Source: Nanobdellota archaeon
GTDB taxonomy: Archaea > Aenigmatarchaeota > Aenigmatarchaeia > QMZP01
Direction of reading: 5' to 3'
Length of the DNA stretch: 64,000 nt
NCBI GenBank assembly: GCA_018816245.1
Contig: JAHIVW010000003.1
Span: forward strand, 470,834-534,833
Numbering within the stretch: the first letter of the stretch is position 1; the number at the start of each line of letters is the position of its first letter. Position numbers and translations under genes: made by a program. Below, piece after piece: positions 788-44,541 of the stretch. Below the pieces are notes generated by a model. It ran no database searches. It was not told the DNA's origin and worked only from the letters and a program-made list of their open reading frames with translations.

Positions 788-1114
788 GTGATTGTCATGT
801 CATTCATGCTTATCATACTCGGAGCAATCGATATCATTGCAGGCATCGTGCTCACCCTCACGGGTATTGTTTCCTTTGCTGACAATCAGCTTGTGTTCAT
901 CCTCGCTATAATCTTCATTCTCAAATCGCTCTATTCCCTGGTGACGGCCATGGCAGCCGGGTTCTTCTTTGATGTGCTCGGCTGGTTTGATTTGTTCGCT
1001 GGGTTCATTCTGCTGCTTGCAACCTGGGAGATCACCTTCGGGTTTGTCATCTGGATCGGGATCATCATGATCATCAAAGGGATCTATTCCATTGTCATGG
1101 GACTCGTCGCATAG
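788..1114 (+). CDS. Small hydrophobic membrane protein (about 3 TM helices), function unknown. GTG start immediately after the leuS stop.
   Basis: 108-aa ORF, strongly hydrophobic (ILGAIDIIAGIVLTLTGIV..., GFILLLATWEITFGFVIWIGIIMII). Confidence 0.4.
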   Translation: MIVMSFMLIILGAIDIIAGIVLTLTGIVSFADNQLVFILAIIFILKSLYSLVTAMAAGFFFDVLGWFDLFAGFILLLATWEITFGFVIWIGIIMIIKGIYSIVMGLVA

Positions 1115-1122
1115 CGTCCCAG

Positions 1123-4122
1123 TTACCGAGAACCACCCTTTTGCAGATCATACATTTTTTTTATTCTGTTGAGATCGTCAGCAGTATGGACGTCTTTATC
1201 TGTCCGTATCCTGACAACGCGCGGGAAACGGAGCGCGTAGCCAGAGGTATAGGTCGGACTTTTCTGGATTTCTTCATATGCCACCTCAACCACAACATCC
1301 GGCTTGATGACGACACGGTTTCCCGCTTCTTTCTGTATCAGTGGGGTAAGGAGTTTTGTCAGTTCCTGGAAGGTAACCCCTTCAACCGCTGCTTTCTCCT
1401 TGATACCGGTTCCGATCATGCCGCATTCGAGAAATCGTCCAGTTTCAGTGTCTCGCACACCTAACACATAACTTCCTAACCATCCTGTCCGCTTTCCCAT
1501 TCCCCAGGTTGCGCCGATGATCACGAGATCCAGATTCTCCATGGTTGGTTTGACTTTCAACCAGAAACCAACGCGCCTGCCAGGCTGGTAGTGCGCCTCC
1601 AAGTTCTTCACAATGAGCCCTTCCTGATGCGCCTGCAATGCTTCCTTGTAGAATGCGGTTGCGCGCTTGAGGTCCGTTGTCTCAAGATGTTTCGAGAGTT
1701 GGAACTTACCAGGAATCGGTCGAATGATTCGCTTAAGCGTTGCCCACCGCTCCTGTAACGATGTCATAAAGAGGTTCTTTCCTTCGAGGTAGACCACGTC
1801 GAACAAATTCACCTGCACCGGAATCTCTTTCGCAATCTTCTCGATGTCATACTTGCGCTTGATCCGTTGAGAGAGGAACTGAAAAGGCATGGGAATGTTT
1901 TTCCGGAACCCGAGCATCTCTCCTTCAACAATTGCTTTCTTTGCCGTGATTCCCTCTCGTGCCCACGAGACAACTTCAGGAAACTGCTTGGTCACGTTTT
2001 CCAGTCGGCGCGTAAAGAGCCAGATCTTCTTTCCATCCTTATGAATAGAACAATTGTGGAGAGAAACAAAATTCGAACAATAACTTTCATCTCCTTCTAC
2101 TTTGAAATTGAACACTCTTGCACGTGGATCAATCTCTCGAGGATTATGACGCCGAAGCTCCCTTTTTCGCAATATCTTTACAAAAAGTTTGTCCTTGATT
2201 ATCTTTGCATGTTTCTTGTTTTTGGGAATGATAAGTTTGAAATACGTTCCACCAGAGACGGTTATCCTTCTCACCCCCATAACAATACCAAATCGCAAAC
2301 CTATGAGTTGTGCGAACGTTGCAAGATTGCTTTCTTTTGTAATAATGCTTGTTCTCCCTAGCTTGTCAGTATGACCGTCAGCTTCTTTCCATCCTTGAAG
2401 GAAGGAAAGAAAATGTTCCTTTGAAATATTCCAAAACCAGCTGGGAAGTGTTTTTCCTCTCCAGCCCGTTTTCCTGCGATTTCTGAAATTCTTCGAAAGC
2501 CAAAGTAGGAAAGGTCTATCCGTCCAGTAGAGACATAAAGCACCACGAAGCGGGCTTTCTGAGATACGCGTAATTCCAAAATCGTTAGTAATTATCTTTT
2601 TATAATATTGACAGAGCTCCTTTTCTGTTTTCCGATTGAACATTAAATCTATTCGGTATGTTTTGTTTGTCGTATTTGTATAACCGTCACCGATCCAGAA
2701 TCCCAAGAATCTGAAAAAGTTTTTATTTAAGATAAATTCCTTTCGGTAGCCGTCAATTGTTTTCAAACTGATTTTCTTTGAAAGTCGCTTGACAGGAAAA
2801 CGAGGAACAGGAAAAACCACTTCAGCATCACGAGGGACAAATTCAATAGGCAACCAACAAATAGCACCTTTCACCGAGACGAGAATTCTGTGCTTCTCCG
2901 TAATTCTGAATTGATTGCCTAGAAATGTCTGAAATTCGAAAACTCGTTCTGCTTTATCGATATATCTCCTATTTTTTTTCATGATTTTTTTATATCTGCC
3001 CGTATGGGTCAGCACGAAATCACCAACAGTTACATATTTCGCAGAAACGAGTCCTCTATCCTTTACGAACAAAGGAGTATCTCCTGAAATGCATCGAACG
3101 CCATCATACTTAAATTCGAGAGCAGGATGTTTGTATGATTGTAATGCACTCTTCAGGGACGGAGCTTTCTCTGATAACAGGACGTGGTAGGGCTTGCCGA
3201 CTTCGAGGCTCACGTGCTGCAACCCAGCAATCCCTTCCTCCTTTGCAAGCCGTGCCACCTCTCCGTAATCAGGTTGCAGAAACCATGCCCGTTCAACAAC
3301 ATCGCTGAGTTGCTTCTTCAGATTCGATCCTATTGCTGCATCAGCAATAAGGACGTAATCCTGTCCCCGGTTTGCGTTCCACAGATCCGCAAGCTCGATC
3401 TTCTTTTTTGTCACGTGATTGTGTTTTTTGAATGTTTCCACTTCTCGTTCTGTGATGCGTTTCTTTGTGACGAGAACAGCAAGAACATCAGCGTCAATGA
3501 GAACATGTTTGTTCCGTTCCTTGGTAAGGAGAGAGACAAGGTGTTTGTCCTTCGGTTCCTTTCCCGGCCACAGAATTTCCGCGAAGAAGGCGTTGACAAT
3601 AGCATCCCGAATCATACCTTCAGCAACGCCGACGCGAAGATCGCCGAGCACGGTTCGCACAAGATATTTCGCTTCTCGGGGTGTTGCTGTACTGATCAGT
3701 TCGGATACCAATTGGGATTTCCGTTCCTGTGATCCCTTGCCCTCCACAACAACAAGTTTTTGGATGTTTGTTGTCACCTGTTCTATGGTCAGTGTTTTCC
3801 GAAAGAGGGTTGCCTGCTTCTTTTTCTTGATCAGCTCTTCGATGACGGAGCCGTAGTCACCGCTTTTTCTGAACTGGGCAACGACCTGTGTTTCAGTGAA
3901 TCCTGTTGTACTGGCAATAATCTTGACCATGACGTGGCTGGCAATTCCAAGTTCTGCCGCTTCCCAGGAAGGAAACACGGTCCCTTGGAGCAATCGTACC
4001 ACACGCGGTAATTCTACCGTGGATGTTTCCTGTAGGAACGTGGCAAGGAGATCTGTTTTTGCGAGCTTGCTGGAAACAGTACTCAGCTTCTCGTAGAGCT
4101 CGGCGAGCGGGGCGTAGTGCAT
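1123..4122 (-). CDS. lig: ATP-dependent DNA ligase interrupted by an intein. Likely start is the Met at 4122 (MHYAPLAELYEKL...); the six-frame ORF extends to 4188.
   Basis: N-terminal DNA-binding domain resembles archaeal Lig. Adenylation motif EFKYDGVR is followed directly by CISGDT (intein N-terminus). After ...FVSLHN the extein resumes as CSIHKDGKKIWLFTRR, a KYDG-xR-x-x-IHKDG ligase motif. TATA-like AT-rich elements lie inside the 4123-4188 extension. Confidence 0.85.
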   Translation of the reverse strand: MHYAPLAELYEKLSTVSSKLAKTDLLATFLQETSTVELPRVVRLLQGTVFPSWEAAELGIASHVMVKIIASTTGFTETQVVAQFRKSGDYGSVIEELIKKKKQATLFRKTLTIEQVTTNIQKLVVVEGKGSQERKSQLVSELISTATPREAKYLVRTVLGDLRVGVAEGMIRDAIVNAFFAEILWPGKEPKDKHLVSLLTKERNKHVLIDADVLAVLVTKKRITEREVETFKKHNHVTKKKIELADLWNANRGQDYVLIADAAIGSNLKKQLSDVVERAWFLQPDYGEVARLAKEEGIAGLQHVSLEVGKPYHVLLSEKAPSLKSALQSYKHPALEFKYDGVRCISGDTPLFVKDRGLVSAKYVTVGDFVLTHTGRYKKIMKKNRRYIDKAERVFEFQTFLGNQFRITEKHRILVSVKGAICWLPIEFVPRDAEVVFPVPRFPVKRLSKKISLKTIDGYRKEFILNKNFFRFLGFWIGDGYTNTTNKTYRIDLMFNRKTEKELCQYYKKIITNDFGITRISESPLRGALCLYWTDRPFLLWLSKNFRNRRKTGWRGKTLPSWFWNISKEHFLSFLQGWKEADGHTDKLGRTSIITKESNLATFAQLIGLRFGIVMGVRRITVSGGTYFKLIIPKNKKHAKIIKDKLFVKILRKRELRRHNPREIDPRARVFNFKVEGDESYCSNFVSLHNCSIHKDGKKIWLFTRRLENVTKQFPEVVSWAREGITAKKAIVEGEMLGFRKNIPMPFQFLSQRIKRKYDIEKIAKEIPVQVNLFDVVYLEGKNLFMTSLQERWATLKRIIRPIPGKFQLSKHLETTDLKRATAFYKEALQAHQEGLIVKNLEAHYQPGRRVGFWLKVKPTMENLDLVIIGATWGMGKRTGWLGSYVLGVRDTETGRFLECGMIGTGIKEKAAVEGVTFQELTKLLTPLIQKEAGNRVVIKPDVVVEVAYEEIQKSPTYTSGYALRFPRVVRIRTDKDVHTADDLNRIKKMYDLQKGGSR
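2053..3093 (-). mobile_element. Intein (347 aa) with a LAGLIDADG homing-endonuclease domain, inserted in the DNA ligase adenylation domain just after KYDGVR
   Basis: Starts with Cys (CISGDTPLFV), ends ...VSLHN with +1 Cys. Two LAGLIDADG-type blocks (FLGFWIGDGYTN and FLQGWKEADGHT). The segment is visibly more AT-rich than the flanking extein sequence. Confidence 0.75.
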
Positions 4123-4186
4123 ACTGATTCTTCGTTCTTGAGACATTAAAATTGGTGATTTAAGCAGGGAAGACCAACTCCTTTTC

Positions 4187-4924
4187 ATGACCTACCCGGT
4201 GACAAAACTGATCATTGCTATCAATGTGATCGTTTTTCTCCTCGTGTTTTCGTTCCCTGAAACCGCCCGGGAACTGATCTTCCTCTCCTTCAGCTTCTCC
4301 GCCGGCACCTCGGGAGAGATCTGGCGATGGATTACCAGCATGTTTCTCCATGTGAGCGCGAGCCATATCGTCCTCAACATGCTGGGACTCTGGTACTTCG
4401 GGAAGGTTCTCGAACGGTCAGTATCGCGGCAATGGTTCTTGGCCATCTACTTCATCTCCGGGCTGCTGGGGAACTTCGCGTTCATGATGACGTCAGGTGC
4501 ACCGGTTGTTGGGGCATCAGGAGCAGTCTTCGGTGTCCTTGGTGCAGCGATGCTCCTGAATCCGATGAAACCGGCAAAGATCTTCATCTTCCCGCTCCCG
4601 CTGGGTATTGTCGGGATCCTGTTTCTCTTGTTTGAAACCATGGTCATTTTCTTCCAACCTGTTGAATTCGGGCATGTTGCAACGATTGCACACATTGCCG
4701 GTGTGATTGCCGGCGGGATGTTCGGGGCCTTCTATAAACCGAAACAAGCGCTGAAAAGTAGTTTGTTTCTTGCGGTCTCGCTGATCCTGCTCATTGCACT
4801 GAATCCCATCTTCTCGCTCATCACGAGTGTTGGTGGGTTTATCCACTGGATCATCGAACAAGTTGCTGGTCTTGTCTTGTACACCTTAGCGGCACTCCTT
4901 TCCTATGTTTGGGCGGCTTTCTGA
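4187..4924 (+). CDS. Rhomboid-family intramembrane serine protease
   Basis: Polytopic membrane protein with the GxSG active-site motif (GASGAVFGVLGAAML) and the downstream catalytic His helix (HIAHIAGVIAGG). Confidence 0.8.
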   Translation: MTYPVTKLIIAINVIVFLLVFSFPETARELIFLSFSFSAGTSGEIWRWITSMFLHVSASHIVLNMLGLWYFGKVLERSVSRQWFLAIYFISGLLGNFAFMMTSGAPVVGASGAVFGVLGAAMLLNPMKPAKIFIFPLPLGIVGILFLLFETMVIFFQPVEFGHVATIAHIAGVIAGGMFGAFYKPKQALKSSLFLAVSLILLIALNPIFSLITSVGGFIHWIIEQVAGLVLYTLAALLSYVWAAF

Positions 4925-5226: not shown

Positions 5227-7893
5227 CTACACCTGAAAGAAGTGCTCAGTAAAGGCAGGATAGAAATTATCCGGCTCGATTGTTTCGATGGTCAACACAT
5301 GGGTGAGTTGGTTGTTCCAGACCAGCTCGGTCTGGAGGTACTGGTTCCAGAGGGAAAGGGTTGCACTTGCTGTTGTATCCGGTTGAAGAGCATCAATAGT
5401 GATTTTACCCTGAACGGTTTCAAATAGTTGTCCTGGATCAATAACAAAGAACTTTTCTTCACCTTGTTGTTTGAACTGGATTTCATGGCATGTTTGTTTG
5501 CTAATGAATGTTTGGCATTCAGGATTGCCAGTAACCGTTAAGGTGCATGCAGGAGCAGGAGCAACATCGTACGAACATTGAATATCTGCTACAGTGGAAG
5601 GTTTCACAGTCGCCCTAAACGCGAGATCCAGCCCTATCACCTTTCTGTTCATGAGATTTTGGAGTTCTTCTCCGGGCTGGGTGTTTGCCGTAATGTCACA
5701 GGTGAGGGTGTCATCTACATTCATAAAGAATTGCGAGCAGTCAACCCGGTCTCCCCGGCGTTTATACAACGTGATATCATTGAGACGGTAGTCGAATGCA
5801 TTTTCATCAACAAGTGGATAGGTGTTCATCATTCTGATTTTCAATTTCAGATTTGCGTTCCCGCCGACGATAAATTCGATTTCAGGGATAATATAGACGG
5901 ATAAGATTTTTTCAGAGTCTGTTCGTTGGCTCGGAATCTCCAGCTGGGTGAGGTACATCTTTGACGTCCCGGGATAGATCATCCCGCTTCCGGCTTGCCA
6001 TTGTTTCTTGACAAGATTTGTTGCAGGATCAACAGCAAAAAGAAGGTCGCGAACTCCCAAGGCATAGGCATTTTCCGTTTCCGGACGGGCTGCTGATAAT
6101 ATTGAAGAAAAGGTGATCTTGTCGCCATCGCTAATCTTGCTGAAATCAGTTGCAAGATCAGTGAATTTCCAGTATATTGACTTCACACCAATAGCGCAAT
6201 ATCCTGAGATGTCGGCACTTTCTCCGCATACCTTGTCTGGACGGGATTGAATCGGTCCGATGCCGGTATTAAAGGCGATTAACGAATCACCCTGGAGATC
6301 AAAGGCAAACGGGATAAAGGACGCTCCTTCAACGGTTGTTGTTGTTCCAGCAGCAACTGCTGATACTCTTAGGATATAGGTTTTTTCTTGGTAGAAATCC
6401 TCTTCTTCGATACCGTATCTCTCTCGTAATGCGTCCTTGATATCGTCGAGTGAGAACTGAATGCTTGTTTGGATTGTTGTTTCATCTTCAACGAAATAAA
6501 CTGACTCATTCGTTATCGTGAACAGTTGATAAGGGATACATGCTCCTGTATCTGAAGTCTTAACGCAGCCGAGATAGGGATCTTCTGTGGTGGATTGAAA
6601 CATGAGTAAAACCTCTGCGTTCGTCTTGACAAAGGTTGGACTTGACCCTTTATTGTATATTTGAATCGGAACCGTAATGACCTGGTTGTTCGCATCGTAC
6701 AGGGGGTTTCCGGTCGTCTCCGGGGGAATAGTATCAATGTTAATACCGTCAATCCCGTCCGATGATTGTGGTGAATCAACAACAAGGTCTACCAATCCCT
6801 CTTTGCAGGGCGCTGTAATAACGTTGGGTGCGTTCTCCCCATCGTCTTTGCAGGAGAGCGTGAGTTTTTCTATCGACTCCGCAAGTTTCGCTCCTTCTTC
6901 GGTAGTGTAATTGACATGATAGGAGGTGCCGAACCAGTAATCATTTATATTGTATGAATCAAAAACATTTCTATTCTTTACCACGAGTTTCTGTGTTTGG
7001 TCAAACGAGAGCTCCGTTGGGGTAATCCCCCCATCTGACGGGACAATGTCCTTGTATCCATAGATCGCCGTCTGATTCGATAGTATGAGATAGGGATTTT
7101 GTGTCCCAACGATAAGCTCGTGTCCTCCATCAAAAATAGATGGGGTAATATATTTCGCCTGTGAAAATGGCTGGATGATTGTATCGCTTGTGGGTGTTTG
7201 AAGAGCGATCTCCGCTTCCCAGTATTGTCCCGGGTAGAGATTGCAGAACCCACCAGTTCTACATCCTTCTTCATCCCATGGTTGTGGTTCTGTTGTGAAT
7301 TCGCCGTTTTCATCTGTAAAAAGAGGATCTTCATCTGTTCCAAGTTCTATAATGGGCTCATCATCAAGATATGAGTCTTCTGGATAATTGTCAGGAACCT
7401 TGTAGACGGTAAACTTAATTCGTTTGTTTGTATACAGTTGCCCGCTTCCATCATTCAGCTCAACGTAGCCGGTGAATTCAATCGTCGGTAACGACCCAAG
7501 GGTAAAGATAGGCTCGTTGAGATGGATCACCCATCCCCGGTCAACATCGAACTGCATCTCATCAATCGCATTCCCAGTGAGCACCCGAATCACTCGGAGC
7601 TTATCATTTGGAAGAAAATGGAGCTGGTAATCCCGTGATTCGCCAACAGGAATAGACCGGTCGGTCTGGAAGGTTCCCACCGGCACACCGTTGATGGTTA
7701 CGGTAAATGTCGGAATGTCTTTTGAGCCGCAATTCTGCAGGGTCATCGCCCCTTCATCAAAGCCGACGATCTTGACGCATGAACTGTAGGGATCAAGAAC
7801 CTGCGGGAAATAAAGTGCCGCAAAGCTGCTGAGGACGATAAGGATAACCGCGAGTAAGACCACAGCGAGGATTGTTGACGATCCCTGTTTCAT
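5227..7893 (-). CDS. Large (888 aa) secreted or surface protein with a pilin-like (class III-like) N-terminus, function unknown
   Basis: N-terminus MKQG/SSTILAVVLLAVILIVLSSFAALYF (basic-x-Gly then hydrophobic helix). Rest is Thr/Ser/Asp-rich extracellular-type sequence. Co-directional with and immediately upstream of the small CGDG protein. Confidence 0.7.
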   Translation of the reverse strand: MKQGSSTILAVVLLAVILIVLSSFAALYFPQVLDPYSSCVKIVGFDEGAMTLQNCGSKDIPTFTVTINGVPVGTFQTDRSIPVGESRDYQLHFLPNDKLRVIRVLTGNAIDEMQFDVDRGWVIHLNEPIFTLGSLPTIEFTGYVELNDGSGQLYTNKRIKFTVYKVPDNYPEDSYLDDEPIIELGTDEDPLFTDENGEFTTEPQPWDEEGCRTGGFCNLYPGQYWEAEIALQTPTSDTIIQPFSQAKYITPSIFDGGHELIVGTQNPYLILSNQTAIYGYKDIVPSDGGITPTELSFDQTQKLVVKNRNVFDSYNINDYWFGTSYHVNYTTEEGAKLAESIEKLTLSCKDDGENAPNVITAPCKEGLVDLVVDSPQSSDGIDGINIDTIPPETTGNPLYDANNQVITVPIQIYNKGSSPTFVKTNAEVLLMFQSTTEDPYLGCVKTSDTGACIPYQLFTITNESVYFVEDETTIQTSIQFSLDDIKDALRERYGIEEEDFYQEKTYILRVSAVAAGTTTTVEGASFIPFAFDLQGDSLIAFNTGIGPIQSRPDKVCGESADISGYCAIGVKSIYWKFTDLATDFSKISDGDKITFSSILSAARPETENAYALGVRDLLFAVDPATNLVKKQWQAGSGMIYPGTSKMYLTQLEIPSQRTDSEKILSVYIIPEIEFIVGGNANLKLKIRMMNTYPLVDENAFDYRLNDITLYKRRGDRVDCSQFFMNVDDTLTCDITANTQPGEELQNLMNRKVIGLDLAFRATVKPSTVADIQCSYDVAPAPACTLTVTGNPECQTFISKQTCHEIQFKQQGEEKFFVIDPGQLFETVQGKITIDALQPDTTASATLSLWNQYLQTELVWNNQLTHVLTIETIEPDNFYPAFTEHFFQV

Positions 7894-16376: not shown

Positions 16377-19300
16377 TTAGGTAAACGTGACGGTTATTTC
16401 TTTTGGTTGTGCGGCAAAGGTGTCTGTTGTTTTATCATAAACGTCGACTGTAATGGTATATGTTTTAGCTTGATTAACAGGATAGCTACAAACATATTCA
16501 ATTATTTTTTGGGATTGAAAAGGCTCGAGAAGCGTATTGCCATGATTATCTTTTTCACAATCAATTTCCACTGCATATTCATGCGCTGTTTGGAAATTAT
16601 CAATTGTAAGGATGAAGGGAATGTCACGGTAGTTTGTAGAATCCGCTTCAGAAGCAAAGGTAAATGTTTCAGGAGAAAGGCTGAATTGGGGAACACAAAC
16701 GTCACCAGATGTCTCATTACATGGTTCACTAGAACTCGAGGTTCCGCTATCACCCGGCGACGTTCCCCCGCCGCTTGTTCCGCTCAGTTCTTCTATTTTT
16801 GCCGCAAGAAGATTGTCAATGACAGTTTGAAGTGTAGTGTCCGCGTTGGGTGGAGCCTGTCCAGCTTCAAGGAAGGCGATGAACTCCGTCATTGTCGGCA
16901 ACACGGCATTTAATTTATCCTTAACACTTGTCTTAGTTGTCTTCTCAATCGCGGCATTCACGGTTTGTTGCGCTGCTTTGAGGGCAGTTGCTGCATCAAC
17001 AGGTTTGGGAGAGGCAAGCTGCTTTGCCTTCCCAACAGCGAGGATCGCACTGTTGATCATCTCAGCAGCAGTCGTTGCCGTCACCGTCCCGTACCCGGAC
17101 GGAAGGCTGCTCCCACATTCTCCCCAAGCAGTAATACACTCGTCCTTTGGATCCGCAGTCCCGGTTTTTAAGCAGCCGCTCGTTGGGTCTCCGACACATA
17201 GGCAGACGGTGAGTGAGTCGACATACTCATTATTACAAATGAGCTTGAATGTTTTCGCGCTCTCCCCTTCAAATGCTGTAATTGCGTCAATATTTTTGTA
17301 CTCGCTAATCGGGATAAGCGATCCGTCCTCCTTCTGGATCATCGGGTTTTGGCACGGAACCGATGACTGATACTGGCTGACAAAGAGTGATAATTTCGAT
17401 CTTCCCAGGGTTGTGTAGCCCCCGCTTCCTCCAATAACAATCTGCTGTCCGACGTCGCCACCATACCCGCAGCACTTCGTCGCTCCTGGCACATCATTAC
17501 ATTTTGCGTACAAACTCGTCGTATCGCTCAGATCCTGAATAGATTCAATCGCATTCGCGAAGTTTCCGGCTGCCTGACCGAATTTCTGCGCCTCGGCTGA
17601 GATCACGTTCATGTTCGCCTGCATGTTCCCTATAATACCGTTGACCGACCCGAGGTTCACACACGCGAGCATGCCGTTGAAGCAGGAGAGATCCTTGCCA
17701 CAGTAGCCGGCGTCAAGCTGGTGCTGCTGGACCTGCAGGCAGGCTTCCATCTTCAGGAACTCGATCTCAATGTTCTCTGCATCAATCATGCTCTTCATCA
17801 TCGCAGACAGCATGTTGCAGATGCTGCCAATGGCAGTGAGCACAAAGGTCCCTGCGGCTGTATACGCGGTAATCGTGTTCTTGAATTCCCGGGAGCCGAG
17901 CTTGGACGTCATCTTCGAGATGCCGCTGTGCACTGCAGCATCATTGTTGCCGGCGATCTGGCCCTGGAATTCCGACGGCTTCAAGGCATCATAGAACGCG
18001 TATCCGATCCCTACGATCGTGAGCGCGGTTGCAGCAATCGATGCGTACAGGCAGAACTTCTGCAAACTGATGAGCTTCTGGGAAATTTCAAGGATGTCCT
18101 GGATTTTCTTCTGGATGTCTTGGATGAGTTCCTGGGTAATGTCAAACAAGGATGTGAACGTCTGCCGCACCTTGATGGCAGCATAGTCGTCGGTGAGCAG
18201 CAACAATTCCCGTTTTTGGGCGCCGTTGTTGTAGCTGATCAAAACCGAAATGTCGTTCGGCTCATAGGTGTTTGTATCACCCTTTGAACACTCAGGATCA
18301 GCAGGGATCGCAGCCGTACAGTTGAGGGTGAGGTTGCTCGTCCCGAACACGAGGACCTCCTGCTGGCAATAGATGTTCTGGGTCGATTCCCCGTCAAGGG
18401 TTCCGAAGATGTTCTCGATCTGGGTGCCTGACGGCTGATTCTTGATGTGTGCCTTGATGTTCACGAAGTGGGGGATCTCGCAGTTCTTGAAGCTGACCGG
18501 CTGGTTCGGATGATCAACAACAAGTTTGATGTCCCCTTTCTCCTGGCAGCTCCCAGCAATGTTGTCAACCCGATGGTAATCACAGTAGTATGCGTCTCCG
18601 TACATAGGATCCTTGGCACAGGGACAGTCAACGCAGGAGTTTGCTGCGCTTTCCCCGTACTGCGGCTCGCACACGCCGTTGTTCGGGTGGTATTGGGGAA
18701 CAAGGATGAGATCAGCAAAGGATGCGGTCAGATGCTGCTGGATGATTCCAGACGGATTGATATAGGAACCATCAGGATAGGAAATAGTAAGGTTCAGGGT
18801 ATTGGGACCAAGGGTTTCATAGGGCAGCGAACATTCAGGGATCGGAGGAAGGGTAAGTTGGCACGTCAAGAGGCCAGTCGGGCTGCCAACAACAACTTCC
18901 TTGCAGGTGATGGGATACGGTTGTGGTTCTCCATTCTTCATGTAGAAGACCGCAAGGATTTCTGATTCAGCGGGCTTGTTGATGATTTGGGTAGTGAGAT
19001 TGATCAGATGGGTCTGCGTACAGTCAGACACGTTCCGCGGGGACACGGAAAGGACAGTCAGGCCAACGTCATTGATGAGCTTGCATTGGGTAATTGCATC
19101 ACAATATTCACCAGCCCCAGCGCAGCCGCAGTCAACGCAACAGGTGGCGGCGCTTTCCCCCTTCTGGTTGTCACACAACCCGTCACCGCAGAGCGATGAA
19201 GGAACTGTGACATCGGAGAAGCCGCTCTTCAGATCCTTGGTAATCGTGATCGGGCCATCACTAAAGCTCGTCTTGAAGGTGATGCTGTTGCTTTGAATAA

Positions 19301-20930
19301 AGTAGGTGTTTTCTTTGCTGTAATCAGGAAGGAAGAGGGGGATGCTGCAATTGTACACATGATTTGGTGCCCCGCCAACACAGGTGATCGAGCCCGTAGT
19401 GGCCCCAACGGTTTCGTTCTTGTTCTCAATGATTTTCCCCAGTTGGTACTCAACATTCGTCACCGAAAGGTCCGTCGGCGGATTGTTGATTTTGGCAACA
19501 ATATCAATTGTGTCACCGGCGGGGTTGTAATCAGGAATAAAGGACGTGACCGAGAGCACGGACAATGAAATCGTTGCCTCTGATGAACAGACCTTGGTTC
19601 CGGCATTGCAGAAGAATCCTGACGGACAGCTGCAGTCGTAATTGACGGTGATATCAGGAATTACGGCAGTGAGTTCCTTGAGGATCGTGGTTGCCCCATC
19701 AGTGTAGGGGATGGTTGTACTTACCTTATTGGAATTGATAATGTAGCTTCCGAGCCCACATGACACCTTTGATGAGAGTTGTGTAACACAGGTGTAGGTG
19801 TTCCCGATGCCTTTTGGGCAGCTCACGGAGAACTGTTTCGCACCGAAGGAGAGGAGTGCAGTGATTTGTGCCGGGAGACTTGCTGGTGGATTGTTGATCT
19901 GGACGGTGACGTTGACTGGCACGGCCTGGTTACAATTAGTAACTGGGGAAACCAAGGCAGAGGTCACGGACATGGTGATGTCATTGGGGTTCTTGCAGCT
20001 GCCGGTTTCCGGATCACCGCCTGCAATATCACAGTAGGCGTTCAGCCCGCACCCGCAATCATAACAGCAACTGGTTGCGTCTTCACCGAGACTGCCTTCA
20101 CAGGTTCCGTCGCCGCAGGTGAAGGACGGGTTCTTGTTCAGGACAATAGGATTGCCGATTCCGCTTGTGGTTTTTGGAAATACGAAAAAGAAATCTTTAC
20201 TGATGGCCGTGATCGTGGTGCTGCTCGGTTGAGCAGTTTCAAAGCTGGGAAGTTCAATTTCGTTGGTGTCAGCGCCGATGCCAAACAAGGAGAGCGCACC
20301 GCTAAAGAGGACGCTCTCTGCCCAATTGAAGGGAAGCATCTGGAAATTGCTGATAAAGTTCTTTGTGGGGTTGAGGAACTGGGTATCAGCAACATAGAGA
20401 TTTGCATCCGGGAGTTCGTAGTTGAAGGTTTCAAATGCATTGTAGCTGATCCGGTTCACCGTGTCCCAGAACCCAAGCCAGGCAACCTGTCCTTCCTGAT
20501 CTTTCAATTTTACGAGCGTGAGAAGATTGGCTGTTTGGGGATAGGTTGGCCCTCCTACCTTTTGTGAAATATCATTCCAGAGGAGTTCAGTGTCGACGAA
20601 GGAATCGAAAATAATCGGCTCAGCTTGAACACATTGTGAAGGATTCAATGCCTTGCATTTGTAGAGGAAGATTTTCTCGATCGAGTGCGCCAAGCTGGCG
20701 CTGTTCACGGTGATGCCGACCTTGACCTTGCTCCATGAAATGTCCGAGGGGTCGTGGCTAACCGTAATCTGCCGGTTGATGAGTTTCGAGGGGGTGACGA
20801 TCAAGGAGTCCTCTTCATTCCCGTTAACAAAGAGATGGATGGTTGCGGCACTGGCCATGGGCATGGAGAGGACCAAGATGCTCGCTGCCACCGCAAAGGC
20901 AGGAATCAGGAAGAGGGAAACATTTTTCAT
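16377..20930 (-). CDS. Giant (about 1517 aa) secreted protein with three CGDGxC...CxDC(G/P)C Cys-rich modules. Probable start MKNVSLFLIPAFAVAASILVLSMPMASA at 20930.
   Basis: Signal peptide. Modules at roughly 20045-20125 (TCGDGTCEGSLGEDATSCCYDCGCG), 19110-19195 (LCGDGLCDNQKGESAATCCVDCGCAG) and 18615-18680 (GVCEPQYGESAANSCVDCPC). Long Thr/Ser-rich beta-like regions. Confidence 0.75.
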   Translation of the reverse strand: MKNVSLFLIPAFAVAASILVLSMPMASAATIHLFVNGNEEDSLIVTPSKLINRQITVSHDPSDISWSKVKVGITVNSASLAHSIEKIFLYKCKALNPSQCVQAEPIIFDSFVDTELLWNDISQKVGGPTYPQTANLLTLVKLKDQEGQVAWLGFWDTVNRISYNAFETFNYELPDANLYVADTQFLNPTKNFISNFQMLPFNWAESVLFSGALSLFGIGADTNEIELPSFETAQPSSTTITAISKDFFFVFPKTTSGIGNPIVLNKNPSFTCGDGTCEGSLGEDATSCCYDCGCGLNAYCDIAGGDPETGSCKNPNDITMSVTSALVSPVTNCNQAVPVNVTVQINNPPASLPAQITALLSFGAKQFSVSCPKGIGNTYTCVTQLSSKVSCGLGSYIINSNKVSTTIPYTDGATTILKELTAVIPDITVNYDCSCPSGFFCNAGTKVCSSEATISLSVLSVTSFIPDYNPAGDTIDIVAKINNPPTDLSVTNVEYQLGKIIENKNETVGATTGSITCVGGAPNHVYNCSIPLFLPDYSKENTYFIQSNSITFKTSFSDGPITITKDLKSGFSDVTVPSSLCGDGLCDNQKGESAATCCVDCGCAGAGEYCDAITQCKLINDVGLTVLSVSPRNVSDCTQTHLINLTTQIINKPAESEILAVFYMKNGEPQPYPITCKEVVVGSPTGLLTCQLTLPPIPECSLPYETLGPNTLNLTISYPDGSYINPSGIIQQHLTASFADLILVPQYHPNNGVCEPQYGESAANSCVDCPCAKDPMYGDAYYCDYHRVDNIAGSCQEKGDIKLVVDHPNQPVSFKNCEIPHFVNIKAHIKNQPSGTQIENIFGTLDGESTQNIYCQQEVLVFGTSNLTLNCTAAIPADPECSKGDTNTYEPNDISVLISYNNGAQKRELLLLTDDYAAIKVRQTFTSLFDITQELIQDIQKKIQDILEISQKLISLQKFCLYASIAATALTIVGIGYAFYDALKPSEFQGQIAGNNDAAVHSGISKMTSKLGSREFKNTITAYTAAGTFVLTAIGSICNMLSAMMKSMIDAENIEIEFLKMEACLQVQQHQLDAGYCGKDLSCFNGMLACVNLGSVNGIIGNMQANMNVISAEAQKFGQAAGNFANAIESIQDLSDTTSLYAKCNDVPGATKCCGYGGDVGQQIVIGGSGGYTTLGRSKLSLFVSQYQSSVPCQNPMIQKEDGSLIPISEYKNIDAITAFEGESAKTFKLICNNEYVDSLTVCLCVGDPTSGCLKTGTADPKDECITAWGECGSSLPSGYGTVTATTAAEMINSAILAVGKAKQLASPKPVDAATALKAAQQTVNAAIEKTTKTSVKDKLNAVLPTMTEFIAFLEAGQAPPNADTTLQTVIDNLLAAKIEELSGTSGGGTSPGDSGTSSSSEPCNETSGDVCVPQFSLSPETFTFASEADSTNYRDIPFILTIDNFQTAHEYAVEIDCEKDNHGNTLLEPFQSQKIIEYVCSYPVNQAKTYTITVDVYDKTTDTFAAQPKEITVTFT

Positions 20931-20934
20931 AGGA

Positions 20935-22788
20935 TCATGCGTCCAGTTCTGCCCACGTGACCGTGCAGGCCTTGTTTGCTGGGAACGGGGCCTCAAGGAC
21001 CGGACCGATACCGCAGCGCTTCAGGACTTCGGAGAGGATGATCATGCGGGCGACTGCTTCTTGTTCATTTCCGAAGCTGAACCCTAAATAATAGGGGAGA
21101 TACACGTAAAGGTCTTTGCCGTCCAGATCTTCGGTGATTTGGTAGTTTGTGGTCATGGCACCGTACATGGTGAAGTCCTCCTCGTCAAGGAGGAGGCCGT
21201 TGACGAAGTACTGACCAGGACTGATCTTGGGAACCGTGATCTGGGAGGTCAGACCGAACTCTTGGAGGAAATGCTTCCCGTTCTGGGACTCCAGGAACAG
21301 GTGCACTACTTCGGTGGGATACTTCGTCCGGATGGGATTGATATCATTCGTGAAGATCTGGTACGTCTCTGAAACGGTATTGTTCGTGATGAACACGTCA
21401 TAGAAGTTCAGGCGGATGCTTGGTTGCTTCTGAAGCGTCGCATGAACATCGACAATCTCAGCAGGATCTTTGTTCTGGAGGTAGTCTTCATAGTTTGCTG
21501 CAGTAATGCGCAACGGGCCGACACCACAGGGAACAAGGTTTGAGAATGTCCCGGTTGCATCTGTCTTACCCAAAGTGCAGCCAAGGTAGGTGACGGTTGC
21601 GTCCTTGATGGGAGAACCATCAGTTGTAGAAACGGTAATGGAACTGTAGCATAACGAGGAGGCACAGAGCGCCTGCTGTTCTTCAGGGATTGGTGACACG
21701 ATCGTTGCAGTGAGATCGGGTGTATTCTCCTTGATGGTGACATCCACAGCGAACTGGAAGATGTTGTCGGTCAAGGAATCCTTGACGCGGACAATGGCAG
21801 GATACGTCATACTATATTTCACGAGAATGGGATCACTGCGACACTTTCCTGTAAGCGGGACAAGTTCAGGAATGACCACCAAGGTGTTGGGATCAACCTG
21901 GAAGGTGCTGGGGTTCAGAGAGAACCCGTCCGGCAGGTGGAAGGAAACATCAAGCGCTTCGTAGATCTTGCCATTGATTTCAGGAAGCCCGTACTTTGGT
22001 GATGCAGAACTGGTGAACGTGTTCTGCGGAACCTTGTTTGGTAAATAGGTGTGGGCCAGGGTCACGGCAATTCGTTCCTCGACCGCTGTCCTGAACTCAT
22101 CATATGTCTTTGTGATATGATCACTACAATCGTACGTCGTCACCAGAAGTGGTGTGGTTTGGACTTTGTTTTCAAGTGGTGAAAGTGCCATGCTAATGAT
22201 GGTGAAATGTGCGAGGTAGGTCTTCTGCTTGTCACTCGTGACGTAGTGTTCAGCGAAGTCGAGTACTTCGCCAAAGGCTGTTGGAACCGTAACAGAGAAT
22301 GGTTTGTTGATGGCATACCCTTCGACACTCACGGGAAGCTGGACCGTGACCGCGATTTCCCCGCTTCTAATCGTGCTGTCAACAAGCGGCGAGCCAGTGA
22401 CCACGTTGGGAATGGTGAGTGACTCAATGGCACCGGGCAGGTTTGCTTCAAGATAGTCTGCCACGCCGACACGGAAGTTGCTTTCAACAGGCGGGATCGA
22501 GACAGCACCCTGCTTTGACCAATAGGTTACTTTCCTTCCAAGGAAGGAAACACCGTCTTGTGTTGGTGTCAGGAGTCCGCCGTTCCGGGAAAGTTTCTGG
22601 AGCGTGTCAATCACGGCACCATGGATCACGTTCTCGATGGTGGCTTCAACGGTTCGTTGCTTCTCAGCAACCCCAGAAGGAACTGGTGAGGGAGTCAGGT
22701 CGCCAGCGAGGAACGCATAGGCGATCACGACGACCGCAACAATGATGATACCGAGAATTGCAAAGAATTCGGTCTGCCCGACCCTCAT
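20935..22788 (-). CDS. 617-aa secreted or surface protein with a pilin-like (class III-like) N-terminus. First gene of the surface-protein operon.
   Basis: MRVG/QTEFFAILGIIIVAVVVIAYAFLAG (Arg-x-Gly followed by a long hydrophobic helix). TATA box tatatatat at 22811-22819, about 25 nt upstream. Confidence 0.7.
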   Translation of the reverse strand: MRVGQTEFFAILGIIIVAVVVIAYAFLAGDLTPSPVPSGVAEKQRTVEATIENVIHGAVIDTLQKLSRNGGLLTPTQDGVSFLGRKVTYWSKQGAVSIPPVESNFRVGVADYLEANLPGAIESLTIPNVVTGSPLVDSTIRSGEIAVTVQLPVSVEGYAINKPFSVTVPTAFGEVLDFAEHYVTSDKQKTYLAHFTIISMALSPLENKVQTTPLLVTTYDCSDHITKTYDEFRTAVEERIAVTLAHTYLPNKVPQNTFTSSASPKYGLPEINGKIYEALDVSFHLPDGFSLNPSTFQVDPNTLVVIPELVPLTGKCRSDPILVKYSMTYPAIVRVKDSLTDNIFQFAVDVTIKENTPDLTATIVSPIPEEQQALCASSLCYSSITVSTTDGSPIKDATVTYLGCTLGKTDATGTFSNLVPCGVGPLRITAANYEDYLQNKDPAEIVDVHATLQKQPSIRLNFYDVFITNNTVSETYQIFTNDINPIRTKYPTEVVHLFLESQNGKHFLQEFGLTSQITVPKISPGQYFVNGLLLDEEDFTMYGAMTTNYQITEDLDGKDLYVYLPYYLGFSFGNEQEAVARMIILSEVLKRCGIGPVLEAPFPANKACTVTWAELDA

Positions 22789-41103: not shown

Positions 41104-44100
41104 ATGAGGCTTGTGTGGGCAAGTTTCGTTCTTTTCGTCGTCCTTCTGAGTGTACCGGGGGTGAGTGCTGCATCACAGCTTTCATGCCGATTTACAACAC
41201 AAGGCGAAGTGTGCCAGAGCGCTCAGGGCGAGATCACCGTCTATCATTTGTTTGATGTAATGAATTCACATATCGAGATGCCATCGCAAACGAAATTCGC
41301 TCAAAACATCTCCTTTTGTTGTAAGGTCAACGACAACTCCAATGTTATTCTCCAAGGCGGCGCTTGTGCTGCCGGGCCCATCATGGGACAAGACAAGATG
41401 ATTCTCATGCGCCTTGCACAAGCAACGGACAGCCATGCACAAAAAACGACCTATACTGGTACCCCTTATACTACTGACCTCTGTCTCGGGATTGCCAATA
41501 CCGGAAAGGGAACCGGGGCCTCCTGTTCGTACAAAACAACCTGTTCGGGAGACGAACTGTGTTTTGGATCAATCAAACAGGATACCAACTCCCATGTTGG
41601 CGATTGTAGCAGCAGCGCCTATGCAACCAAGATCTGTTGTGACCTTGGGTGGGATGTCACTGGTCCGACGGTCCAGTTGGATCCTGTTTCCAGTCCGACC
41701 AGCAACACAGAACCAATCATCACTGGAACAGCAACCGATACCTCGCTTCCCATCTTCCAAGTCTGGGTCAAGATCAATTCAACAGTCACTGGTGACACGA
41801 TCATTGCTGGAAACGCAACGTTGAATACTCCAGGATCGCTGGTGACGAATTTTGTGTTTGCCCCGGAACTCACTACAGTCGATCATTCCTATCTCGTTAC
41901 AATCTATGCAGTTGATAACGGACAAAACAAGGGAGCCGCCAAGACAGCTCCTCTTGTCGTTGATGTAACACCCCCTGTGGTCACACTGAGTACAGCAGCG
42001 AGCGCGACTGCTGACACCACACCCGTATTCTCGTACACCGCCACTGATGCCACGACCCAGATCAAAACGCTCAAATACCAAGTCAAGAAAGCGACAGGAG
42101 GCACGGTTGTTATTGATTGGACAACGATCCAGACACCGAACACCTTCGAAACAGGAACCCTCACTGACGAGACGTATGTGGTCACGCTCCGAGCTACTGA
42201 CTCGGTCGATCTAAGTGCCACCGATGAAGAAATTATTATTATTGACACCAAAGCGCCCACGACCACAGACAATGTTGATGGCAGTGTTACCTATTCGCCG
42301 TCTGGTGTTACTTTTGATCTTAGCTGTAACGATGATTATGGAGGCGTTGCCGGAAGCGGCTGTGCGACCATCAAATGGTGCCTTGCCCCTGGCGATGCTC
42401 AAACACCCTGCACTGTTCAAGAACAGGGGAGCATCGTCGACGGAAAAGTTCTTGTCGCTCCCCCTGAATGTGTCAGTGGTGTCTGTACTTGGAAAATCTT
42501 CTATCGGTCCATTGATGGAGTGGGAAATACAGAAGCGATTAAACAATCAGCTATTATTGTCTTGGATGCCGAGAGTCCGACTTGTACTCTCACAGCGCTC
42601 CCCGCCTACACACCTACAAACACTGTTTCCTTGATATGGACAACAGAAACCGGCTCGTCGGGAACCCCGATTGAAAGTGTTGTGATCCGCTACAAGAAAA
42701 CAGGTGACACGAGTGAAACTGAAGTCCCAGCAACAATATCGCCAACAGCAATCGGGAATCTCGCAACCAACACGGAATACCAGTTTCGCTGTTTGGCAAC
42801 AAGCGGGACCGGGCAGACAGGTTCCAGCACTGCAGTCAAAACATATATCGACACGGTCCCGCCGCGCATCACCGTTTATCCTGTTCCATCGTTCTTGAAT
42901 ACGACCGAGGTTCCCATCTTCTGGCTCGCGAATGATACGAACACAAGTGTCTCCCCGCCAATCGGTTCTGGTGTTGTTTCTTTGACCTTCCAATACCGCG
43001 TGAATGGCGGGACATGGGCAACTTGGAAGGTATTGGAAAAAACAGATCCTGGCTTTTCGACCAACCCAACAACACCACAGAAATTTGGAAAGGATAACAT
43101 TCCTGTTTCACTCACTAGTGGAGCAACCTATGACATTCGTGTTCTTGCAACCGATGCAGCCGGTCATAACAGTCCTGTACCACCGCCAGCAACAGTGCTG
43201 ATTGATTTTGGCAAACCAGTGTGTTCCCTTGACGATCTCCCACCATTCGCGCCGCTTGACGGCGACGCCACGGTTTCGTGGACATCAATTGATACCGGCG
43301 GTTCTGGTGTGGCCTTTGCAACAATCAAGAAGAGTGCGAATCCTCCCAACTGGCAGGACATCCCTCCGGTTGAAAATGACCCAACAGGATCAGAGGTCAT
43401 CGACCTTGCGAACGGGCAAACGGTATTCTTCCAGTGCCGCGCTTTCGATTTTGCGGGAAACAAGGGGGACGCATCGGAGATTGTGTCGCTTTCTGCTGAT
43501 TATGCCGGCCCAACAATCGGCGTTACCACGGCAACGAGTGTAAAGCTGCTCGAAAACCTTTCCGTAGCAGCAACGATTCTTGATCACTTCAATGAAATTG
43601 AAAGTGTCTCATTAACCTTTAACGGGTCGACGGTTGTGACAACGTCAATAACCGCATCGTCTGATAACCAAACCTGGAACGTGACCTGGACAGTTCCGTC
43701 TGCAGGGAAGGGAAAGGGCATCTACTCCTTTTCAATCACGGCAACAGACGCTCTCGGGAACGAGAACACGACAACAAAAACCTTCTCAATCGTCACCTGT
43801 GTTGAAGGATCGACAAAATCATGCGGAAGTAATGTCGGCGTCTGTGAAGCAGGCATCCAACTTTGTGTGGATAACGAGTGGGAGGATTGTCAAAACCAGA
43901 CGTTGCCGACAGTAGAAGTCTGCAATAACAAGGATGATGATTGTGATGGCAGCGCTGATGAAAATCTCACAAAGTCGTGCGGTGGACCGAATATCGGTGT
44001 CTGCAAAGTCGGAATGCAGACATGCTTGGGTGGGGTATGGACCAACTGTATCGGAGCAGTCTACCCTGAAACAAGCGAATTCTGTGGCGACGATCTCGAC

Positions 44101-44541
44101 AATGATTGTGATGGGTCAACGGACGAGCTCTGTGCTTGTTCCCAGGGCGATACCCAAGCATGTGGGAGCGATGTTGGTGTCTGTTCCAAGGGAACCCAAA
44201 CTTGCACGAGTTCCGGTGTCTGGGGAGATTGTGAAGATTCTGTTGATCCTATTCAGGAAATTTGTGGAAACGGAAAGGACGACGACTGTGACGATAGTGT
44301 TGATAATGGTTGTGACGTCGTTGGAACCTGTTCCAACGGGTTTCAAGACGCCAACGAAGCTGGTGTTGACTGCGGTGGGGTGTGTCCAACCAGTTGCGAA
44401 ACCTCGCTCATCGACTCCCCATATTTCATTTTCACCTTGATCGGTGTTGTCATGCTTGTTGCGCTTCTTGGTGTTGTGTTGTTCCTTCGATCACGAGGGA
44501 AAGAATTAACGTGGGATGAAGTCCTGAGCCGCTGGTCGTAA
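41104..44541 (+). CDS. Giant (1145 aa) secreted surface protein with Ig-like beta regions, C-terminal MopE-like Cys-rich repeats and a C-terminal TM anchor
   Basis: Signal MRLVWASFVLFVVLLSVPGVSAAS. Repeats of CxxxxGxCxxGxQxCxxGxWxxC...ExCnnkDDDCDGxxDE at about 43800-44400. TM FIFTLIGVVMLVALLGVVLFLRSRGK. Confidence 0.75.
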   Translation: MRLVWASFVLFVVLLSVPGVSAASQLSCRFTTQGEVCQSAQGEITVYHLFDVMNSHIEMPSQTKFAQNISFCCKVNDNSNVILQGGACAAGPIMGQDKMILMRLAQATDSHAQKTTYTGTPYTTDLCLGIANTGKGTGASCSYKTTCSGDELCFGSIKQDTNSHVGDCSSSAYATKICCDLGWDVTGPTVQLDPVSSPTSNTEPIITGTATDTSLPIFQVWVKINSTVTGDTIIAGNATLNTPGSLVTNFVFAPELTTVDHSYLVTIYAVDNGQNKGAAKTAPLVVDVTPPVVTLSTAASATADTTPVFSYTATDATTQIKTLKYQVKKATGGTVVIDWTTIQTPNTFETGTLTDETYVVTLRATDSVDLSATDEEIIIIDTKAPTTTDNVDGSVTYSPSGVTFDLSCNDDYGGVAGSGCATIKWCLAPGDAQTPCTVQEQGSIVDGKVLVAPPECVSGVCTWKIFYRSIDGVGNTEAIKQSAIIVLDAESPTCTLTALPAYTPTNTVSLIWTTETGSSGTPIESVVIRYKKTGDTSETEVPATISPTAIGNLATNTEYQFRCLATSGTGQTGSSTAVKTYIDTVPPRITVYPVPSFLNTTEVPIFWLANDTNTSVSPPIGSGVVSLTFQYRVNGGTWATWKVLEKTDPGFSTNPTTPQKFGKDNIPVSLTSGATYDIRVLATDAAGHNSPVPPPATVLIDFGKPVCSLDDLPPFAPLDGDATVSWTSIDTGGSGVAFATIKKSANPPNWQDIPPVENDPTGSEVIDLANGQTVFFQCRAFDFAGNKGDASEIVSLSADYAGPTIGVTTATSVKLLENLSVAATILDHFNEIESVSLTFNGSTVVTTSITASSDNQTWNVTWTVPSAGKGKGIYSFSITATDALGNENTTTKTFSIVTCVEGSTKSCGSNVGVCEAGIQLCVDNEWEDCQNQTLPTVEVCNNKDDDCDGSADENLTKSCGGPNIGVCKVGMQTCLGGVWTNCIGAVYPETSEFCGDDLDNDCDGSTDELCACSQGDTQACGSDVGVCSKGTQTCTSSGVWGDCEDSVDPIQEICGNGKDDDCDDSVDNGCDVVGTCSNGFQDANEAGVDCGGVCPTSCETSLIDSPYFIFTLIGVVMLVALLGVVLFLRSRGKELTWDEVLSRWS

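Follow-up and report, generated by a model that had tools for sequence, protein, structure and literature searches.

The window analysed here, a stretch of 64,000 nucleotides from contig JAHIVW010000003.1 (positions 470,834 to 534,833, assembly GCA_018816245.1) of a Nanobdellota archaeon assigned to the Aenigmatarchaeota, encodes an ATP-dependent DNA ligase whose minus-strand reading frame is interrupted by an insert at positions 2053 to 3093. Based on conserved sequence motifs and a predicted fold, this insert very probably represents a class 1 intein with an intact LAGLIDADG homing endonuclease, residing in the ligase of a DPANN archaeon directly behind the KYDGVR sequence of motif I; the probability of this interpretation is estimated to be approximately 93%. 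Conservation of catalytic residues, inteins that are more alike than their host proteins and unoccupied sites in the closest relatives point to an element that may still be actively homing.

Insertion site and restored ligase

The minus-strand frame reads ...PALEFKYDGVR/CISGDTPLFV...SNFVSLHN/CSIHKDGKKIWLF... (slashes mark the predicted splice junctions), and the segment from Cys to Asn comprises exactly 347 codons without stop codons. The C-extein following the junction reads CSIHKDGKKIW, giving the spliced reading ...KYDGVR-CSIHK.... Accordingly, the boundaries and length of the insert, its position right after the KYDG motif and the peptides quoted in the initial annotation of this DNA were all reproduced; the two LAGLIDADG blocks, Cys1, the terminal HN and the +1 Cys listed there are likewise present. 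With the insert taken out, the DNA spanning approximately 40 bp at the insertion point consists of GAATTTAAGTATGATGGCGTTCGA joined to TGTTCTATTCATAAGGATGG.

Removal of the insert restores a regular ligase, as had been proposed. The precursor matched the Pfam profile DNA_ligase_A_M only partially (profile positions 34–204, 151.8 bits), whereas the conceptually spliced protein of 652 amino acids (aa) matched it contiguously from position 3 to 204 with 171.6 bits. When the spliced protein and the 56 nearest relatives lacking the intein were aligned with MAFFT, all 57 sequences ran without a gap from residue −15 to +20 around the junction. The closest relative with an empty site (P0004, 64% identical) reads KYDGAR/LSIQKKG at the corresponding position. 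Moreover, all 106 long homologues show the KxDGxR/C arrangement. At the +1 position, each of the 106 occupied alleles has Cys, whereas the 118 empty ones have I, V, L, T, A, M or F. Occurrence of the +1 Cys in occupied alleles only is what the splicing chemistry requires.

The initial annotation had described the outcome of removal as restored spacing between motifs I and Ia. The spacing is indeed restored; the label Ia for IHK does not hold, since this tripeptide forms the strand following motif I, and the usual motif Ia is more likely the downstream LFTRR. The naming of IHK leaves the argument from the gap-free junction unaffected. Recognition of the insert is of practical relevance, because the public entry (P0003) is annotated as a protein of 999 aa without mention of an intein and the mature enzyme would comprise 652 aa, so that wrong inferences on domains and length can be prevented.

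Splicing and endonuclease signatures

Conservation of individual residues was counted in an alignment of 105 family members (A2), with denominators of 104 or 105 depending on the column. Blocks A, B, F and G, which the initial annotation had named as decisive for an assignment, were identified and are near-invariant in approximately 105 homologues (Table 1). None of the refutation tests put forward in that annotation overturned the assignment as an intein. The features expected of a class 1 intein, namely Cys1, the T-x-x-H sequence of block B, HN followed by Cys(+1) and a HINT fold, were all recognized in sequence and structural model, so that the element is assigned to this class on predicted grounds. 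Likewise, a monomeric endonuclease with two LAGLIDADG motifs is predicted from two helices with acidic ends and from matches at profile and fold level. The two motif strings FLGFWIGDGYTN and LQGWKEADGHT correspond to intein residues 129–140 and 232–242, respectively, and the helices end in FLGFWIGD136G and LQGWKEAD239G, each containing a putative catalytic Asp. Furthermore, all 105 members have Lys214, and Gly137 and Gly240 following the two Asp residues are also (near-)invariant. Full-length members range from 333 to 354 aa; the sole entry of 298 aa is an N-terminally truncated fragment (P0001). Mini-intein derivatives were not seen among the 105 members, all of which retain the endonuclease domain.

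Screening with family profiles assigned the insert to LAGLIDADG_3 (PF14528) with 30.2 bits, exceeding the cut-off of 22.5. The remaining NCBIfam matches fell on those regions of the RNR, PolII, RFC and GyrA models that contain an intein. In a set of 20 trimmed inteins of the family (A3), Intein_splicing (PF14890) was detected in 19 members at E ≤ 0.01 (best E value 2.4e-12) and LAGLIDADG_3 in 18. The insert alone, compared with sequences in the PDB by means of phmmer, yielded marginal matches only (best E = 0.029). The A3 set, used as a sequence profile against the same sequences, retrieved PI-PkoII (2.4e-9), VMA inteins (1.5e-8) and PI-SceI (5e-4).

An AlphaFold2 model built on the A2 alignment reached a predicted local distance difference test (pLDDT) score of 95.2 and a predicted template modelling (pTM) score of 0.92. 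It comprises beta-rich parts at residues 1–121 and 296–346, separated by an alpha/beta domain with the LAGLIDADG helices at 124–136 and 225–239. The top 16 Foldseek matches in the PDB were all intein homing endonucleases, among them TliVMA (7qsu, E = 4e-17; 7qss), PI-SceI, PhoVMA, PI-PfuI and PI-TkoII. The next matches, I-DmoI (E approximately 5e-6) and I-Tsp061I, corresponded to the central domain.

The best structural matches, i.e., the archaeal VMA inteins (TliVMA, 7qsu/7qss; PhoVMA, 7qst) and PI-SceI (1vde, 1lws), with E values of 4e-17 to 1e-10 and template modelling (TM) scores of approximately 0.5–0.6, share with the model the two-domain organization of a HINT part and a LAGLIDADG endonuclease. 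They differ in that their sequences are 12–17% identical to the insert and in that they occupy another site in another host, the V-ATPase subunit A; PI-SceI is also larger and has an additional region for DNA recognition. PI-PfuI (1dq3) and PI-TkoII/PI-PkoII (2cw7) are likewise class 1 inteins with LAGLIDADG endonucleases in archaeal proteins of DNA metabolism, but show approximately 13% identity, comprise 454–537 aa with extra domains and reside in ribonucleotide reductase and DNA polymerase B. I-DmoI and I-Tsp061I, which are monomeric and free-standing or intron-encoded, superpose on the central domain of approximately 175 residues (TM approximately 0.65–0.7, target-normalised; root-mean-square deviation 3–4 Å). 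Unlike the insert, they lack a HINT domain and are encoded in introns of ribosomal RNA, with no splicing at the protein level.

Following the chemistry of class 1 inteins, the precursor of 999 aa would be translated with its adenylation domain split. Cys1 would then undergo an N-S acyl shift, and attack of the +1 Cys on the resulting thioester (trans-thioesterification) would lead to a branched intermediate. Cyclisation of Asn347, assisted by His346, would release the intein, and an S-N shift would yield the mature ligase of 652 aa. As the insert lies five residues downstream of the lysine to be adenylated, no catalytic activity is expected from the precursor before splicing. The freed intein may in turn cut intein-less ligase alleles across the sequence encoding motif I, and repair of the cut would copy the intein into them. 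Such homing would result in a patchy distribution across lineages and in a foreign, AT-rich composition.

Distribution, mobility and alternative interpretations

The initial annotation implied that ligase is a novel host for inteins; this part has to be withdrawn. A 'ligase' intein allele, new at that time, was reported by Soucy et al. 2014 (PMC4071816) for one of 118 haloarchaeal genomes, and Novikova et al. 2016 (PMC4760082) also name archaeal DNA ligase as containing inteins. In the supplementary alignment of the former study, the ATP-dependent DNA ligase I of Haloterrigena (Natrinema) thermotolerans DSM 11522 reads EWKYDGAR/CISGYTPIY...AVHN/CQLHFDG. This intein occupies the identical site, comprises 349 aa compared to 347 aa, shares 46% identity over the full length (E = 8e-119) and has Cys1, HN, the +1 Cys and two LAGLIDADG motifs in common with the insert described here. 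The hosts differ: the haloarchaeal ligase is only 37% identical, originates from another phylum and is high in guanine-plus-cytosine (GC) content, whereas the host in the window is a DPANN archaeon whose ligase carries an extra insertion of approximately 90 aa. The element in the window is thus a further member of a published allele, and neither a new host nor a new kind. Searches of the literature collection used here for ligase inteins in DPANN organisms or the Candidate Phyla Radiation (CPR) returned nothing specific.

A word-index search with the single sequence had found two homologues, suggesting a very rare element. This was overturned by a profile of three aligned sequences (A1), which detected 127 proteins at E ≤ 0.001; ligase clusters of 885–990 aa account for more than 105 of these. 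Their inserts are 40–65% identical to the one in the window over 100% of the query, and all read KxDGxR/C...HN/C(Q)IHK. In an exhaustive search of representative sequences with the same profile, approximately ten clusters at 50% identity carried the intein. Since the profile used there retained C-extein columns (674 positions, with one full-length host), the resulting list was filled by ordinary ligases and is uninformative on other hosts.

Scanning one genome per GTDB species revealed the allele in approximately 47 species, at 41–55% identity. Carriers were found among Woesearchaeota, Pacearchaeota, Nanoarchaeota, Micrarchaeota, Iainarchaeum, Aenigmatarchaeota, Altiarchaeales and Nanohaloarchaea, in two haloarchaea, namely N. 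thermotolerans, which was thereby recovered (locus L013), and a Natronococcus sp. (L044), and in CPR bacteria of the Levyibacteriota and Daviesbacteria (L067; also L021, L028 and L036). On the Levyibacteriota contig JAZDGF010000001.1 (L067, 10001–12757), the gene has clearly bacterial neighbours, encoding FtsH, Fpg, peptidyl-tRNA hydrolase (Pth) and a 5'-3' exonuclease, which indicates that the allele is shared across the boundary between archaea and bacteria. Furthermore, the ligase encoded on a viral contig from IMG/VR (L068, IMGVR_UViG_3300003891_000030, approximately 1000–4626) is interrupted at this motif I site by an intein that shares 31% identity (EIKFDGFR/C...LLHN/C). A second intein (...FVVHN/S) is located upstream, apparently in the same long open frame, which also contains a nucleotidyltransferase-like region. 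Distant relatives with 21–24% identity were identified in other hosts, namely a Hel308-type helicase of Thermococcus and a B12-dependent ribonucleotide reductase of Acidimicrobiia.

Initially known from one haloarchaeon, the allele proves to be common in DPANN archaea and is present in CPR bacteria as well; a viral ligase harbours a diverged intein at this position. Only this breadth and the viral counterpart are mildly new, and the current understanding of inteins is unchanged. The ligase intein is a potentially useful marker for gene flow among ultra-small episymbionts and might provide a LAGLIDADG endonuclease of new specificity, directed at the sequence encoding ligase motif I.

Regarding composition, the greater AT-richness of the insert noted at the outset was borne out by GC contents of 38.4% for the insert, 49.5% for the N-extein and 49.4% for the C-extein; at third codon positions, the respective values are 0.36 for the insert vs. 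0.52 and 0.57 for the exteins. Among all tiles of 1041 nt in the window, the insert has the lowest GC content (z = −4.3), a level reached by 0.08% of tiles. Low GC content characterizes the whole family: in each of the 37 related loci, the intein lies below its flanks, by 6.9 points on average and by 18 points in the two haloarchaeal genomes. The largest contrast among these loci was observed for the N. thermotolerans and Natronococcus loci (48–49% for the intein vs. 66–67% for the flanks), which suggests that the haloarchaeal inteins were imported from a low-GC donor, e.g., a DPANN episymbiont.

The closest ligases lack the intein, which was present in only two of the 120 clusters nearest to the ligase in the window; the empty-site comparison proposed initially thus gave the anticipated outcome. 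Among 108 occupied alleles, mean pairwise identity amounts to 51% for the inteins and 43% for the exteins, with some pairs showing 60% vs. 33%. Overall, the distribution fits vertical descent mixed with recurrent horizontal homing by an endonuclease that would still be functional.

Several observations weigh against the interpretation as an intact and mobile class 1 intein. On TIGR01445, the profile for the N-terminal region of inteins, the copy in the window scored 14 bits and hence below the cut-off of 24.5. It gave no match to PF14890 at E ≤ 0.1 and is the sole one of the 20 A3 members without such a match at E ≤ 0.01. As this copy stays below the cut-off on generic splicing profiles, its assignment relies on the family, the structure and the motifs. 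Moreover, we infer both splicing and endonuclease activity from conserved residues together with the predicted fold. The low GC content throughout could partly reflect a composition rich in Lys, Asn, Ile and Phe, and not recent transfer. Finally, identities of inteins and exteins are positively correlated (Spearman 0.56), so that vertical descent could likewise account for much of the distribution.

This correlation is one argument for a splicing-competent intein with an inactive endonuclease, i.e., a vertically inherited passenger retained because precise loss is difficult. The nearest intein (P0101, 64% identical) resides in a similarly diverged ligase (60%), and degenerate endonucleases are, as is generally known, a feature of many archaeal inteins. 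Such a passenger is nevertheless unlikely: 103–105 of the 105 members retain the two catalytic Asp residues and Lys214, the endonuclease domain was lost in none of them, the inteins show on average greater similarity to each other than their hosts do, up to the discordant pairs mentioned above, and the allele crosses domains of life.

The interpretation as a homing intein also has to be compared with co-option as a conditional switch, in which splicing, and with it ligase activity, would be gated by redox state (via a disulfide between Cys1 and Cys+1), by temperature, or by binding of DNA or ATP to the split adenylation domain. The position of the insert, which guarantees an inactive precursor, and the fact that both splicing nucleophiles are cysteines are in agreement with this idea. 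Conditional splicing is on record for other archaeal replication and repair inteins, e.g., the RadA intein (PMC4513877). The insertion position is equally explained by the preference of homing endonucleases for conserved DNA, and the closest ligase relatives do without the intein; a switch is considered very unlikely. A related and quite improbable, more far-reaching proposal is that the motif I ligase intein might serve as a conditional (e.g., redox- or stress-gated) ligase switch in DPANN and CPR organisms and might also spread across domains, possibly via viruses whose ligase has an intein at this site.

An artefact or dead insertion, such as a chimeric assembly or the remains of a mobile element that turned the ligase into a pseudogene, to which the sharp drop in GC exactly over the insert and the metagenome-assembled source might hint, was rejected as having a negligible probability, since the insert is codon-exact, in frame and devoid of stops, the same architecture recurs in more than 100 independent assemblies as well as in the isolate genome of Natrinema thermotolerans DSM 11552, and all catalytic residues of intein and ligase are intact.

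Host gene and further reading frames

The host is an ATP-dependent DNA ligase of the archaeal/eukaryotic Lig1 type featuring DNA-binding, adenylation and OB-fold domains and the KxDGxR motif. Its domains PF04675, PF01068 and PF04679 all exceeded their cut-offs, and TIGR00574 was matched with 382 bits (cut-off 217.8). The mechanically predicted open reading frame (ORF) extends from 1123 to 4188 on the minus strand and, counted from its first ATG at 4188, comprises 1021 codons. In NCBI, the protein P0003, labelled 'MAG: ATP-dependent DNA ligase [Nanoarchaeota archaeon]' and encoded on a contig of 555 kb from a metagenome-assembled source, starts with MHYAPL at 4122. The Met at 4122 is the likely start of the gene, because P0003 is 100% identical to residues 23–1021 of the ORF. 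The 22-codon upstream extension to 4188 would overlap a divergently oriented rhomboid-protease gene (4187..4924, plus strand), whereas a start at 4122 leaves approximately 64 bp between the two genes. Coordinates of the ligase and its parts are summarized in Table 1.

Table 1. Coordinates of the ligase gene, the predicted intein and their parts within the window.
Feature	Position	Strand	Support
Ligase precursor gene, 999 aa plus stop codon	1123..4122	minus	NCBI P0003 identical; Pfam DNA_ligase_A_N/_M/_C match
N-extein: DNA-binding domain, lineage-specific insertion of ~90 aa, start of adenylation domain up to motif I	3094..4122	minus	
Ligase motif I KYDGVR, holding the adenylated lysine; intein starts at the next codon	3094..3111	minus	
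Predicted intein, 347 aa: class 1 splicing (HINT) domain split by LAGLIDADG endonuclease domain	2053..3093	minus	
Block A CISGDTPLFV; Cys1, putative first nucleophile	3064..3093 (Cys1 3091..3093)	minus	Cys1 in 104/104 with a residue there
Block B GNQFRITEKHRILV, T65-E-K-H68	2878..2919	minus	H68 invariant; position 65 S/T in 105/105
Predicted LAGLIDADG homing-endonuclease domain, approximately intein residues 122–295	2209..2730	minus	Secondary structure of model; Foldseek I-DmoI/I-Tsp061I; Pfam LAGLIDADG_3
LAGLIDADG motif 1 FFRFLGFWIGDGYTN, putative catalytic Asp136	2674..2718	minus	D136 in 103/105; model helix 124–136
LAGLIDADG motif 2 FLSFLQGWKEADGHT, putative catalytic Asp239	2368..2412	minus	D239 in 104/104; model helix 225–239
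Block F RVFNFKVEGDESYCSN	2071..2118	minus	D335 in 94/105, S337 invariant; aligns to block F of PI-PkoII
Block G FVSLHN plus +1 Cys of C-extein (2050..2052)	2050..2070	minus	H346 and N347 in 105/105; +1 Cys in 104/104
C-extein: remaining adenylation domain, OB-fold domain, stop codon	1123..2052	minus	

The segment of approximately 90 aa that separates the DNA-binding domain from the adenylation domain (3301..3576, minus strand; residues 183–274 of P0003) has no match in Pfam. It is common to relatives of 637–660 aa (e.g., P0004) and absent from those of 565–585 aa as well as from the intein-bearing P0101. A further fragment (P0002) features a zinc-ribbon-like CxxC...CxxC sequence at the equivalent place.

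The other long ORFs of the 64-kb window were checked for further inteins, and none were found. Three of these ORFs, all located on the minus strand, showed no Pfam match at E ≤ 0.001, namely 16377..20996 (1539 aa), 5227..7893 (888 aa) and 20935..22788 (617 aa). A fourth, 41104..44541 (1145 aa), contains Ig/FN3-like and MopE-type motifs only. These four ORFs may encode large surface proteins of a kind common in DPANN genomes.

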